A stretch of DNA of 64,000 nt, taken from assembly GCA_044229245.1 (NCBI GenBank), contig JBGATI010000017.1:16830-80829 (forward strand), written 5' to 3'. Position numbers and translations under genes: made by a program. Shown in pieces: positions 29,336 to 47,443 of the stretch (its first letter is position 1; each line of letters begins with the position of its first letter). This DNA is from Gemmatimonadales bacterium (GTDB taxonomy: Bacteria; Gemmatimonadota; Gemmatimonadetes; Gemmatimonadales; GWC2-71-9). Under the pieces are notes generated by a model, which worked only from the letters and a program-made list of their open reading frames with translations, was not told where the DNA came from and did not search any database.

Positions 29336-29349
29336 TGTAAACGTTTACA
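29336..29349. promoter_or_regulatory. LacI/GalR-type operator: perfect palindrome TGTAAACGTTTACA
   Basis: Matches the family consensus TGnAAnCGnTTnCA. It lies 13 nt after a TTGACA hexamer (29317-29322) and 110 nt upstream of the LacI-family gene. I saw only one copy in the window. Confidence 0.6.
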
Positions 29350-29459
29350 TGCCCCTCAAGTCCGACATAATCGTCGGATCTAGACCAAAATTGGATTCTC
29401 TCGATCCCTCGGCCGCCACCAGTGCGTCCGGGCGATCCGACGCCCGCGAGCCTTCACTG

Positions 29460-30455
29460 ATGGTGACCATCAAGGATGTGGCCCGGATCGCTGGGGTCTC
29501 CGTGGCCACCGTGTCGCGGGTACTCAACGGCAGCGACCTGGTGCGGGATGGCACTCGGGAGCGGGTCCAGCAGATCGCGCTGGATCTGGGCTACAGCCCG
29601 CACGGCGCCGCGCGGAGCCTGATCACCAACCGCACCCACACGATCGGGGTGCTGTTGCCGGACATCTACGGGGAGTTTTTCTCGGAAGTCATCCGCGGCA
29701 TCGACCAGGCGGCCCAGCGGGAGGGGTACCACCTGCTGGTCTCGAGTGCGCGGGACGACCTCGAGAGCGCACTCCGGTCGATGCGGGGCCGGGTCGATGG
29801 CCTGATCGTGATGTCGCCGGCGCTGGATGCCATCGCCTCGCGACGGAGCCTGCCGGAGAACTTCCCGGTGGTCCTGCTCAACTGTCCGCCGAGCGATGCG
29901 GCGTACGACAGCCTGGGGATCGCGAACTTCGAAGGCGCCTATGCGATGGTGCGCCATCTCGCCGACCTGGGGCACCGCCGGATCGCGATCATCCGTGGGG
30001 TGGAACAGAACTTCGACGCAGCGGAGCGGTTGCGGGGCTATCGGGCTGCGGTCAGGGAACTCGGCCTCGAGGTCGCGCCCGGGCTCGAACTTCCCGGCGA
30101 CTTCAGCGAGGCGGCAGGGCATGCGGCGGCGCGGGCGATCCTCGGCAACGGGCTCCGGCCCACCGCGGTCTTCGCGGCGAACGATGGCATGGCGATCGGC
30201 GCGCTCAGCGCCTTTCGCGAGGCAGGACTTCAGGTCCCGGTGGACATCGCCGTCACCGGGTTTGACGACATCCCGATGGCACGGTACGTCGAGCCGGCGC
30301 TCACCTCCGTGCATGTCGATATCAGCGCGCTGGGCGAGCGCGCCACGGCCTGGCTCTTGTCCTCCCTGGGCGAGCCGCCGGACCGCCAACTCCGTCGTGA
30401 GACGCTTTCCACGACCCTCATCGTGCGGCGTTCCTGCGGCGCCCGGAGGCCGTAA
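29460..30455 (+). CDS. LacI-family transcriptional regulator
   Basis: N-terminal HTH MVTIKDVARIAGVSVATVSRVLNG followed by a periplasmic-binding-fold sugar domain. Confidence 0.9.
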   Translation: MVTIKDVARIAGVSVATVSRVLNGSDLVRDGTRERVQQIALDLGYSPHGAARSLITNRTHTIGVLLPDIYGEFFSEVIRGIDQAAQREGYHLLVSSARDDLESALRSMRGRVDGLIVMSPALDAIASRRSLPENFPVVLLNCPPSDAAYDSLGIANFEGAYAMVRHLADLGHRRIAIIRGVEQNFDAAERLRGYRAAVRELGLEVAPGLELPGDFSEAAGHAAARAILGNGLRPTAVFAANDGMAIGALSAFREAGLQVPVDIAVTGFDDIPMARYVEPALTSVHVDISALGERATAWLLSSLGEPPDRQLRRETLSTTLIVRRSCGARRP

Positions 30456-30491
30456 GCCTCCGCATCTTCACCACCCCTGGAGGAAGTCGGT

Positions 30492-45017: not shown

Positions 45018-46358
45018 CGAGGCGCCGTTGGTCCGAATGACCTCGGCGTAGAGCTCGGCGCTCGCCTTCCGGGTCCGTTTCTGGGTGGCGTAGTCCACGT
45101 GATAGAGCCCGAACCGCTTCGAGAAGCCATGGCTCCACTCGAAGTTGTCGAGCAGCGACCAGGCGAAGTAGCCGCGCAGGTCGACACCGGCCGCGATGGC
45201 ACGATGCGCGGCCCGCAGATGTTCGCGGTAGTAGTCGGTGCGGAGCGGGTCGGAGAGCACCGGACCATCGGCGCTCGGCGGATCGGGAAAGGCGGCCCCG
45301 TTCTCCGTGATGTACAGCGGCACCGGGCCGTAGCGCTGGTGGACCCAGAGGAGCACGTCGGTCAGCGCCTGGGGATAGACCTCCCAGTCGGTGGCGGTGT
45401 AGATGTGCTGCGGCTGGCGGACCCGGCCCGCGCGCACCGGCAGTTCGGCGGGGGCATCGCAGGTGACGGCGCGGGTGTAGTAGTTGATGCCGAGGAAGTC
45501 GAGCGGCTGGCGGATGAGGGCGAAATCCTCCTCGGGGAATTCGGGCCAGTCGGCGCCGTAGATCTCGCGCAGTTCGTCGGGATAGCTCCCGAAGAAGACC
45601 GGATCGAGATACTGCCGGTTCATGTACGCATCGGCGCGCCGGGTCGCGGCGAGGTCCTCGGGGCGATCGGTCGCCGGGTACTTCGGCTCGAGATTCACCA
45701 CGAGGCCGGGATTCCGGCCCCCTTCGGCCCGGATCGCCTGCATGCCCATCCCGTGCGCGCGGAGCAGGTTGTGGCTCGCAATCGGGGTCTCGGCGACGCT
45801 CTTGTGGCCCGGCGCGAGCGTCCCGAAGAGGTAGCCGCCGTCGGTGACGACCCAGGGCTCGTTGAGCGTCGCCCACATCGCGGCGCGGTCGCCCAGGGCG
45901 CGGACCATCACGGTGGCGTAGTCGGCGAACCAGCCGGCGATGTCGCGGTTGAGCCAGCCCCCCTCGTCGTCGAGGGCCGCCGGCAGGTCCCAGTGGTAGA
46001 GCGTGATGTTGGGCTGGATCCCGTGCTTCACCAGGGTGTCGGTGAGCCGGTCGTAGAAGGCGAGTCCCTTCGGATTCACGGGACCGCGGCCGGAGGGCAT
46101 GACCCGGCCCCAGGAGATGCTGTAGCGGTAGCTGGCGAGACCGAGGTCGCGCATCAGCCGGACATCGTCCTCGAAGCGGCGATAGTGGTCGCAGGCCACG
46201 TCCCCGGTGTCGTCGTCGGTCACCATGCCGGGCGTGTGGGAGAAGCGGTGCCAGATGCTCGCGCCGGCGCCATCGGCCAGCGGTGAGCCTTCGATCTGGT
46301 AGGCGGATGTGGCGGCACCCCAGAGGAAGCCGTGGGGAAAGTGATTCGATTCAGACAT
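45009..46358 (-). CDS. GH1 beta-glucosidase
   Basis: FPHGFLWGAATSAYQIEG, TLNEPW and ITENGAA (the two catalytic Glu motifs). The start is the ATG at 46358. Confidence 0.9.
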   Translation of the reverse strand: MSESNHFPHGFLWGAATSAYQIEGSPLADGAGASIWHRFSHTPGMVTDDDTGDVACDHYRRFEDDVRLMRDLGLASYRYSISWGRVMPSGRGPVNPKGLAFYDRLTDTLVKHGIQPNITLYHWDLPAALDDEGGWLNRDIAGWFADYATVMVRALGDRAAMWATLNEPWVVTDGGYLFGTLAPGHKSVAETPIASHNLLRAHGMGMQAIRAEGGRNPGLVVNLEPKYPATDRPEDLAATRRADAYMNRQYLDPVFFGSYPDELREIYGADWPEFPEEDFALIRQPLDFLGINYYTRAVTCDAPAELPVRAGRVRQPQHIYTATDWEVYPQALTDVLLWVHQRYGPVPLYITENGAAFPDPPSADGPVLSDPLRTDYYREHLRAAHRAIAAGVDLRGYFAWSLLDNFEWSHGFSKRFGLYHVDYATQKRTRKASAELYAEVIRTNGASLL

Positions 46359-46375
46359 TCTCAGAAGGCATGCCG

Positions 46376-47443
46376 ATGGCCAGGGTGATCCTCGAAGGGC
46401 TGACAAAGATATACGAGGAGCGCGGAAAGGTTCACGCCGCGGTCCACGGCGTCGATCTGACCATCGAGGATGGCGAATTCCTGGTCCTGGTGGGCCCATC
46501 CGGCTGCGGCAAGAGCACGACGCTCCGGATGATCGCCGGGCTGGAGACGATCTCGAAGGGCACCCTGCGCATCGGCGACCGGGTGGTCAACGACGTGCCG
46601 GCAAGCGAGCGGGATATCGCGATGGTCTTCCAGAACTACGCGCTCTATCCCCACATGTCGGTCTACGAGAACCTCGCCTTCGCGCTCAAGCTGCGGAAAC
46701 TGCCCGCCACCGAGATCGAGACCCGCGTCCGCCAGGCGGCGGAGCTGCTCGGTCTCGGCGAACTGCTCGAGCGGAAGCCGCGTCAGCTCTCCGGAGGCCA
46801 GCGCCAGCGGGTCGCGCTCGGGCGCGCCATCGTCAGGCAGCCGAAGGTCTTTCTCTTCGACGAGCCGCTCTCCAACCTCGACGCCAAGCTCCGGGTGCAG
46901 ATGCGGCGCGAGATCGCGGCGCTCCGCCGCCGCCTGGGCACCACGACGATCTACGTCACCCACGACCAGGTCGAGGCGATGACGCTGGGCGACCGGATCG
47001 TGGTAATGAAGGATGGCCACGTGCAGCAGGTGGACACGCCACTCGGCATCTATCGCGCGCCGGCGAACACCTTCGTCGCAACCTTCGTCGGCAGCCCGCC
47101 GATGAACCTCGTACCCGGCACCATCACCGCCGGGATCTTCGCCGCGGCGACTGGCAGCTTCACCCTGCCCGTCCCGCAGCAGGCCGGTGCCTCGGTGATT
47201 CTCGGCCTCCGGCCGGAGGCGCTGCACCCGAGCCCGGCAGGAGCGGGCGGCTTCACCGCCCGCATCGAGGAGGTCGAGCCGCTCGGCAGCGAGACGATGC
47301 TCACCGTGGACGCCGGCGGCACCGCGCTGATCGCGCGCGTCGATGGGGGGACAACGGTTCGGCGCGGCGACCAGATCTCGCTGGTCGTCGCGCCGGAGGG
47401 ACTGCACTGCTTCGCCGGGGATTCCGAACTGCGCCTGCCGTGA
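46376..47443 (+). CDS. ABC sugar-transporter ATPase (MalK/UgpC/MsiK type)
   Basis: GAAGG lies 7 nt before the ATG at 46376 (MARVILEGLTKIY). Walker A is GPSGCGKST, with LSGGQRQRVALGRA and a C-terminal TOBE-like domain. An in-frame ATG at 46370 is also possible. Confidence 0.9.
   Translation: MARVILEGLTKIYEERGKVHAAVHGVDLTIEDGEFLVLVGPSGCGKSTTLRMIAGLETISKGTLRIGDRVVNDVPASERDIAMVFQNYALYPHMSVYENLAFALKLRKLPATEIETRVRQAAELLGLGELLERKPRQLSGGQRQRVALGRAIVRQPKVFLFDEPLSNLDAKLRVQMRREIAALRRRLGTTTIYVTHDQVEAMTLGDRIVVMKDGHVQQVDTPLGIYRAPANTFVATFVGSPPMNLVPGTITAGIFAAATGSFTLPVPQQAGASVILGLRPEALHPSPAGAGGFTARIEEVEPLGSETMLTVDAGGTALIARVDGGTTVRRGDQISLVVAPEGLHCFAGDSELRLP

Follow-up and report, generated by a model that had tools for sequence, protein, structure and literature searches.

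What substrate is served by a block of genes that sets a LacI-family repressor and a TonB-dependent receptor (TBDR) beside carbohydrate-active enzymes and an ATP-binding cassette (ABC) importer? The question is posed by an 18-kb locus in a 64,000-nucleotide stretch of contig JBGATI010000017.1 from a Gemmatimonadales bacterium (hereafter the window, within which all positions are counted). The locus runs from lacI through the genes for the TBDR, a GH144 lipoprotein, a solute-binding protein (SBP), two permeases, an exported 1046-residue protein that we call X1046, and a GH94 protein, and it ends with genes for a GH1 protein and a MalK-type ATPase; the ten genes were already named in the original prediction, an earlier reading of the same letters, and open reading frames (ORFs) and Pfam matches bear out all of its coordinates and orientations. 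Our analysis suggests that the block probably serves the use of beta-1,2-glucan and sophoro-oligosaccharides under repression by LacI. The enzymatic and transport steps of this reading are predicted by homology, on a gene anatomy, a conservation of residues and operator, and a synteny that are observed. The earlier proposal of extracytoplasmic cleavage of beta-1,2-glucan, uptake through the TBDR, ABC import, and phosphorolysis plus beta-glucosidase action agrees well with the characterised relatives of the GH144 protein (XcSGL), the SBP (Lin1841) and the GH94 protein (Cgs), to which we turn below.

The GH144 lipoprotein (33560-34993, plus strand) is a homologue of endo-beta-1,2-glucanases. It matches PF10091 at E 4e-80, with a score of 268.9 bits against a cut-off of 27; its alignment with XcSGL of Xanthomonas campestris (XCC2207; PDB 8XUL) reaches E 4e-175 at 57% identity, and that with CpSGL (5GZH/5GZK) reaches E 3e-46. 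XcSGL is specific for beta-1,2-glucan and accommodates Sop7 in its substrate pocket; E239 is its acid catalyst, and the beta-1,2-glucanase clan is further defined by F286 and Y367. In the alignment, E239, F286, Y367 and I453 of XcSGL correspond to E220 (in GFNEAM), the Phe of PLFGH, Y346 and the Ile of GIDQGP in the window protein; as 8XUL is the E239Q mutant, it is the Gln of that structure that aligns with E220. The PF10091-like protein thus retains the GH144 catalytic residues, whose loss the original prediction had named as a reason to abandon it, and the characterised members of the family act on beta-1,2 linkages only, as it had supposed. We therefore regard the protein as a putative endo-beta-1,2-glucanase, well supported by homology.

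The SBP, a lipoprotein with an SBP_bac_1 domain (34990-36273, plus strand), points to the products of such an enzyme. Its best match in the PDB is 3UOR, a Xanthomonas-type protein (8e-121) for which we found passing citations only in the literature; the second is Lin1841 of Listeria (5YSB; 1.4e-72), which binds sophoro-oligosaccharides with a degree of polymerisation of 3-5, and the next binder follows at 1e-31. The match to Lin1841 spans SBP residues 30-414 and stands forty orders of magnitude ahead of the maltose and trehalose binders, placing the protein in the Lin1841/3UOR clade. Two permeases with BPD_transp_1 domains follow on the plus strand, the first UgpA/MalF-like (36270-37163) and the second UgpE/MalG-like (37160-37981). 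The remaining importer component is a MalK/UgpC-type ABC ATPase at the far end of the locus (47443 being its last position on the plus strand, with start candidates at 46370 and 46376), which carries ABC_tran, OB_MalK and TOBE_2 domains and scores 479.8 bits against NF008653 (cut-off 432).

The GH94 protein (41115-45017, plus strand; about 1300 residues, no signal peptide, start candidates TTG 41115 or GTG 41163) contains two GH94_b-supersand stretches and a catalytic domain, and it bears on a rival explanation, namely that the locus serves another beta-glucan (cellodextrins, laminarin or a mixed-linkage glucan) and that its GH94 protein is a cellobiose or laminaribiose phosphorylase. GH94 and GH1 enzymes are classically beta-1,4 or beta-1,3 enzymes, and, among proteins of solved structure, cellobiose phosphorylases rank second in similarity to the window protein. 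However, its bit score against Agrobacterium Cgs in the PDB (897) is threefold that against any cellobiose phosphorylase (294), with laminaribiose phosphorylase (78) and cellodextrin phosphorylase (63) far below, and the corresponding E values are 1e-268 for the Cgs GP module and 1e-86 for cellobiose phosphorylases. The alignment pairs residues 23-396 with Cgs 1543-1916 and 467-1249 with Cgs 2016-2788, so that the protein covers the complete GP module, GP1-RFL (the Rossmann-like insert)-GP2-GP3; taken separately, the catalytic part matches Cgs at 6e-159 and the N-terminal GP1/RFL part at 3e-60, whereas the latter matches cellobiose and chitobiose phosphorylases at only 1e-7 or weaker. The score gap and the Cgs-specific N-terminal half led us to reject assignment as a cellobiose phosphorylase. 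Given also that characterised GH144 enzymes are beta-1,2-only and that the SBP groups with Lin1841 rather than with cellodextrin binders, a locus for another beta-glucan appears extremely improbable. The assignment of the GH94 protein to the beta-1,2-glucan branch rather than to the beta-1,4 or beta-1,3 phosphorylases, as first proposed, is upheld here by a bit-score ranking that stands in for a tree.

The GP module of Cgs begins at residue 1536 and sets chain length through phosphorolysis of beta-1,2-glucan (PMC10901819). The window protein shares with Cgs the collinear arrangement of GP1, Rossmann-like insert, GP2 and GP3 as well as the catalytic-domain motifs FGFRDQLQD, GDWNDGMNRVG, ENGGQYTH and YTGSAGW. 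In the printed alignment, GDWNDG, FGFRDQLQD and GGQYTH are identical or near-identical between the two proteins. By analogy with cellobiose phosphorylase structures, these three motifs may have catalytic or phosphate-binding roles. Unlike Cgs, the protein is free-standing and soluble, having no transmembrane helices and no GT84 synthase or GH189 cyclase domain, and its expected role is accordingly the degradation of free oligosaccharides, not the trimming of a nascent chain bound to protein. By sequence (full protein and catalytic domain against the PDB) it does not fall in the clade of characterised 1,2-beta-oligoglucan phosphorylases (SOGPs), although it may still function like one. Because these SOGPs are too distant and Cgs is collinear, we place it in a putative clade of free-standing Cgs-type GH94 proteins, of the same kind as IALB_1177 of Ignavibacterium.

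The second predicted cytoplasmic enzyme is a GH1 beta-glucosidase of 449 residues encoded on the minus strand (46358-45009), with a Glyco_hydro_1 match at 2e-152 and a score of 581.6 bits against TIGR03356 (BGL; cut-off 478.5). A GH1 enzyme for sophoro-oligosaccharide catabolism is known from Streptomyces griseus.

The same set of genes recurs widely. Scanning one genome per species with the GH144 alignment as query yielded 80 loci (L003-L082), whose gene content was determined by tblastn with the ten window proteins. The core LacI-TBDR-GH144-SBP-permease-permease-X1046 was found in Xanthomonas, Stenotrophomonas, Pseudoxanthomonas, Luteimonas, Lysobacter and Rhodanobacter, and likewise in Duganella, Massilia, Casimicrobiaceae, Steroidobacteraceae, Thermoanaerobaculia and other Gemmatimonadota, and so spans Lysobacterales, Burkholderiales, Acidobacteriota and Gemmatimonadota. 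Since the core is kept in over 50 further genomes, which represent at least three phyla, the gene arrangement is far beyond chance. In 51 of the 53 loci with enough sequence, X1046 is the gene immediately after permease 2. Around the core, add-on genes are variable (GH1 in 24, MalK in 9 and Cgs-type GH94 in 7 of the 80 loci), and the window locus is among the most complete versions. We also compared two Gemmatimonadota relatives, L001 and L002, one of which has the identical ten-gene order and the other lacks GH94 only.

How the substrate crosses the outer membrane depends on the TBDR, a protein of 997 residues (30492-33485, plus strand) with CarboxypepD_reg, Plug and OMP_b-brl_4 domains that assign it to the Oar type. 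Its N-terminus carries a signal peptide ending ...AGSASA/QT; together with the signal peptide of X1046 and the lipoboxes of GH144 (LLAC) and the SBP (LIGC), all read from the translations, this reproduces the export signals proposed earlier. A rival explanation makes the receptor an export channel by which X1046 or GH144 reaches the surface, with oligosaccharides entering through porins. The CarboxypepD_reg/Oar type and the weak Plug match to Pfam are compatible with this; so is the divergence of the receptor, the least conserved part of the locus, which is about 30% identical to the Proteobacteria receptor at the same position where its neighbours reach 55-65%, and so are the binding domains of X1046, which are of the kind typically found in enzymes that encounter extracellular polymers. 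The Oar protein of Myxococcus is reportedly required for the secretion of a protease, but we know of no evidence for such export by Oar-type receptors beyond Myxococcus. Moreover, nutrient import is the function usually assigned to such receptors in Acidobacteriota and Gemmatimonadota, and the TBDR acts as importer in the precedent of carbohydrate utilisation loci containing TBDRs (CUT loci; PMC1790865). We consider the export channel very improbable and prefer to read the TBDR as an importer for beta-1,2-glucan or its fragments.

Between the window and L003-L082, the GH144 proteins, permeases and LacI are 50-65% identical from Gemmatimonadota to Proteobacteria and the receptors about 30%; because of this difference, the comparison suggests transfer of the locus across phyla with a receptor that was fast-diverging or replaced. 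In Xanthomonas, XCC2208, which adjoins XCC2207, is a receptor in which the 2007 survey noted no canonical plug (PMC1790865), and this fits the Oar type of the window receptor.

The TBDR gene is followed by a GC-rich 14-bp hairpin lacking a U tract (33498-33530, plus strand), and the 80-nucleotide RNA that separates the TBDR gene from GH144 has a folding energy of -42 kcal/mol (z -3.7). Each of the three Gemmatimonadota loci has a long GC-rich hairpin with a 12-15 bp stem and no U tract immediately behind the stop codon of its TBDR gene (the window, L001 at about 5514-5548 and L002 at about 5439-5465). The sequences of these hairpins are unrelated although they occupy the same place, so that structure rather than sequence is conserved. 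The element might serve to limit read-through into GH144, or else to stabilise the transcript upstream of it.

X1046 (37978-41118, plus strand) is the constant partner of the transport genes and the least familiar protein of the locus. In Pfam it shows a discoidin domain (F5_F8_type_C, 1e-12) and a partial match to Bac_rhamnosid6H (3e-7; positions 44-211 of 339), with GH15 and GDE_C matches below threshold. An AlphaFold2 model (pLDDT 89.9) predicts, from N- to C-terminus, a beta-sandwich, the discoidin domain, a beta-supersandwich, an (alpha/alpha)6 barrel and a C-terminal beta-sandwich, and Foldseek returns fold-level matches to GH94, GH15, GH116, GH78 and GH65 at 10-15% identity. A profile of the barrel searched against the PDB gave nothing significant (best E 0.17); membership of GH15, GH78, GH94 or GH116 was rejected, the (alpha/alpha)6 domain having no significant sequence match to them. 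The family comprises 1173 clusters at E values up to 1e-30; the closest homologue is 91% identical, and the named homologues come from Gemmatimonadota. Among 24 homologues from several phyla, most have a signal-peptide-like N-terminus, and their alignment with X1046 contains 135 invariant residues, including a GH15-like W-I-R-D motif, SISHEGY...W757-D758 and a set of acidic residues (D629, E677, D679, E746, D758, D820, D822, E872, E909, D923 and D932). Since X1046 is exported, a hydrolytic or binding function is more plausible for it than phosphorolysis, and it is a good candidate for a new glycosidase family. We further propose, tentatively and at slightly less than an even chance, that X1046 founds a new GH family: an exported six-hairpin enzyme that acts on beta-1,2-glucan beyond the reach of GH144 and is fixed in a cross-phylum, one-operator LacI regulon. 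If this is true, its tasks could be to open or trim cyclic or decorated glucans, to cleave the odd alpha-1,6 link of the Xanthomonas cyclic glucan, or to release sophorose in exo fashion.

The alignment of X1046 also contains a vicinal Cys-Cys pair (665-666, in KVPCCVD) that is invariant in 25 of 25 sequences across phyla; the pair could form a vicinal disulfide or a metal site. In two further loci with type IX secretion signals (L083 and L084), relatives of X1046 at 36-37% identity accompany two GH144 genes and SBP and permease genes. One of the GH144 proteins has a Por secretion tail, a GH2-like gene is present, and L084 adds a shorter GH94 protein of 792 residues. Both look like a differently built version of what is apparently the same pathway.

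A glycosidase-like X1046 could also remove an aglycone or another sugar, as would suit a different substrate class: small sophorosides (plant or microbial sophorose glycosides, sophorolipids) or mixed beta-glucosides instead of a polymer. The work on the S. griseus GH1 enzyme, which proposes (alkylated) sophoro-oligosaccharides for a related ABC/GH1 cluster, agrees with this idea. Yet the locus keeps an endo-glucanase whose nearest characterised relative accommodates Sop7, and it keeps a chain-shortening phosphorylase module; since the pair points to chains, not disaccharide glycosides, sophorosides as the substrate seem highly unlikely to us.

The expression of the locus appears to be governed by the 331-residue LacI-family repressor (29460-30455, plus strand), which has the hallmarks of the LacI/GalR family: an N-terminal helix-turn-helix (Pfam LacI HTH), a Peripla_BP-like effector domain (Peripla_BP_3/1/4) and a candidate palindromic operator with a central CG. 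It reached no NCBIfam equivalog at cut-off, and its identity is 78% to the protein in L001, 58% to that in L002 and about 53% to those in Proteobacteria. The operator upstream of lacI, described as perfect in the original prediction, is indeed a perfect 14-bp palindrome, TGTAAACGTTTACA (29336-29349, found by motif search; as a palindrome it has no strand), and is unique in the 64-kb window up to 3 mismatches, where 0.06 occurrences are expected. The sole sigma-70-like match between 29000 and 48000, TTTACA-16 nt-CATAAT (29344-29371, plus strand), was found with a consensus that may not be that of Gemmatimonadota; the right half of the palindrome is the first hexamer of this promoter-like site.

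The operator is conserved well beyond the window. L002, whose X1046 is 53% identical, has an exact copy of the 14-mer about 95 nucleotides upstream of lacI, and L001, whose X1046 is 63% identical, has two copies with 2 mismatches upstream of lacI. Across phyla, the motif TGnAAnCGnTTnCA lies 40-200 nucleotides (mostly 50-120) upstream of lacI in nearly all 49 lacI-carrying loci (47 from the genome scan plus L001 and L002), and in Lysobacterales it is repeated before the TBDR, GH144 and MalK genes. By this recurrence before the receptor, GH144 and MalK genes, the repeated and position-conserved operator is a phylogenetic footprint that, as judged from the compared loci, defines a real regulon. 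A search of the lacI-TBDR, TBDR-GH144 and GH1-MalK regions of the window found no second operator within 4 mismatches. Loci of Pseudoxanthomonas and Luteimonas (L015-L020, L022, L025) have an additional operator copy about 2.4-2.7 kb upstream of lacI (5.2 kb in L017), and the Lysobacterales regulon may extend to the genes beside it.

Taken together, these data are consistent with the following mechanism. Without inducer, LacI bound to TGTAAACGTTTACA would block the co-directional lacI-TBDR-GH144-SBP-permeases-X1046-GH94 unit, since this palindrome and the promoter-like site before lacI overlap; a sophoro-oligosaccharide probably frees LacI from the operator. Linear or cyclic beta-1,2-glucan from other bacteria would be caught at the surface, and the polymer or its fragments would enter via the Oar-type TBDR. 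The GH144 lipoprotein would cleave endolytically to short sophoro-oligosaccharides, while X1046, with its two carbohydrate-binding-like domains, would most likely act as a second extracytoplasmic glycosidase on the polymer, on decorations or odd linkages, or on fragments. The Lin1841-like SBP would pass the oligosaccharides to the two permeases, driven by the MalK-type ATPase; in the cytoplasm, the Cgs-type GH94 protein would release glucose-1-phosphate and the GH1 enzyme would hydrolyse leftover sophorose.

Several observations weigh against this scheme. Only 7 of the 80 related loci have GH94 within 10 kb, and only 24 have GH1, so that neither cytoplasmic step is a constant component of the system; in the window itself, MalK and GH1 have no recognisable operator. 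Chains of characterised SOGPs (Listeria, Lachnoclostridium) are absent from the PDB matches of the GH94 protein up to E 10, and we know of no assayed member of the free-standing Cgs-type clade. The role of X1046 is guessed from its fold and gene neighbours, and Oar-type receptors are said to be tied to protein export (Myxococcus Oar/PopC).

A further rival explanation accepts the substrate and differs on its origin: the cell would recycle or remodel beta-1,2-glucans of its own periplasm (osmoregulated periplasmic glucans), as might happen upon osmotic shifts, with the ABC importer and cytoplasmic enzymes salvaging the fragments. The core is common in Xanthomonas and its relatives, themselves makers of cyclic beta-1,2-glucan, and the GH144 and SBP lipoproteins could face the periplasm. 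In X. citri, the genes for a 'membrane protein', XAC2312, and a GH3 beta-glucosidase are the only two co-regulated by PhoP and low osmotic stress (PMC9108719). If XAC2312 is the receptor of the orthologous locus, it would provide a link to periplasmic glucan turnover. On the other hand, a TBDR as second gene and a substrate-type LacI suit uptake from outside, and no glucan synthase was seen in the window, whose other large ORFs were left unannotated. Recycling of the cell's own glucan is thus unlikely in our view, and the scavenging of external beta-1,2-glucan remains the reading that we prefer.

Gene clusters that break down beta-1,2-glucan have been described in Listeria, Bacteroidota, Streptomyces and Ignavibacterium. 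For Ignavibacterium album, Kobayashi et al. (2022) proposed a route through IALB_1177-1187 that combines a TonB transporter, GH144, a Lin1841-like ABC importer and a Cgs-type GH94 protein (PMC8861115). Like the window locus, it has an extracytoplasmic GH144, a TonB-dependent transporter, a Lin1841-like ABC importer and a cytoplasmic homologue of the C-terminal phosphorylase of Cgs; it differs in having two GH144 proteins together with a GH3 homologue and a GH35 transglycosylase, and there sophorose has no beta-glucosidase assigned to it. That description mentions neither an X1046-type protein nor a LacI operator, and its transport steps are likewise speculated. The XCC2207 region of Xanthomonas campestris and the Lysobacterales loci share with the window the core order from LacI to X1046 and the operator motif; most Lysobacterales loci, however, lack GH94, GH1 and MalK genes within 10 kb, carry extra operators before the TBDR and GH144 genes, and encode a TBDR only about 30% identical to that of the window. 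In the searchable papers, only the GH144 enzyme of the Lysobacterales locus has been studied, not the locus; within our limited literature search, papers that might tie the Xanthomonas genes adjoining XCC2207 to this function came down to the 2007 TBDR survey and the X. citri osmotic stress paper, whose XAC2312 is only a possible member of the locus.

The lin1839-1843 cluster of Listeria innocua resembles the window locus in its Lin1841-type SBP and ABC importer and in its cytoplasmic GH94 phosphorylase and beta-glucosidase. It is a Gram-positive system with no outer-membrane step and no GH144, its phosphorylase belongs to the distant SOGP clade, and its glucosidase is GH3, not GH1. Streptomyces griseus SGR_2422-2427 has a Lin1841-like ABC importer, a sophorose-preferring GH1 enzyme and an endo-beta-1,2-glucanase; this glucanase is GH193, not GH144, and GH94, a TBDR and X1046 are missing. 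CUT loci, which unite a TBDR, a regulator and an inner-membrane transporter, were defined in 2007 (Blanvillain et al., PMC1790865), and the sux CUT locus of Xanthomonas likewise groups a TBDR with an inner-membrane transporter, a degradative enzyme and a regulator of the LacI type; it employs a major facilitator superfamily (MFS) transporter for sucrose, whereas the window has a four-component ABC importer for a glucan. The window locus is a CUT locus by this definition, with TBDR, inner-membrane transporter, degradative enzyme and regulator together and co-directional. None of the ten gene products matched the SusD family, so the SusC/SusD pairing of Bacteroidota polysaccharide utilisation loci is not present among them.

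The expectation of a new type of carbohydrate-utilisation locus accordingly did not hold: the core is widespread across phyla, CUT loci have been known since 2007 (PMC1790865) and the Ignavibacterium model dates from 2022 (PMC8861115). For the locus in Gemmatimonadota, the cross-phylum operator and the constant X1046 partner we found no description in the literature, in a search whose beta-1,2-glucan term may have missed papers. Beta-1,2-glucans are periplasmic or secreted in rhizobia, Agrobacterium, Brucella and Xanthomonas and matter in symbiosis and virulence, and their consumers in soil are barely known. The locus suggests dedicated, tightly regulated scavenging of the glucan in Gemmatimonadota, many Proteobacteria and Acidobacteriota; the free-standing Cgs-type GH94 protein and, above all, the X1046 family, which has no characterised member, are candidates for new enzyme activities, and the conserved operator could serve as a handle for regulon mapping and for constructing a sophoro-oligosaccharide biosensor.

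The fine structure of the locus is compact, with a G+C content of about 68% throughout. The coupling of five consecutive genes (33560-41118) by GTGA/ATGA junctions, noticed in the first reading, is real and consists of four 4-nucleotide start/stop overlaps (GTGA at 34990 and 36270, ATGA at 37160 and 37978); a possible fifth, TTGA at 41115, would join the GH94 start to X1046. The GH94 and GH1 genes are convergent, and their coding ends share 9 nucleotides (45009-45017). GH1 and MalK are divergent, with start codons 11-17 nucleotides apart (46358-46376; about 170 nucleotides in L001), so that in the window the promoter of each must sit within the other gene. The 18-kb locus forms a block flanked by a phosphodiesterase-like gene (26868-29271 side) and a malic enzyme gene (47469-49100 side). 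In L001, a Peripla_BP_6 and phosphodiesterase-like pair (19749-23141) lies between the MalK and malic enzyme genes.

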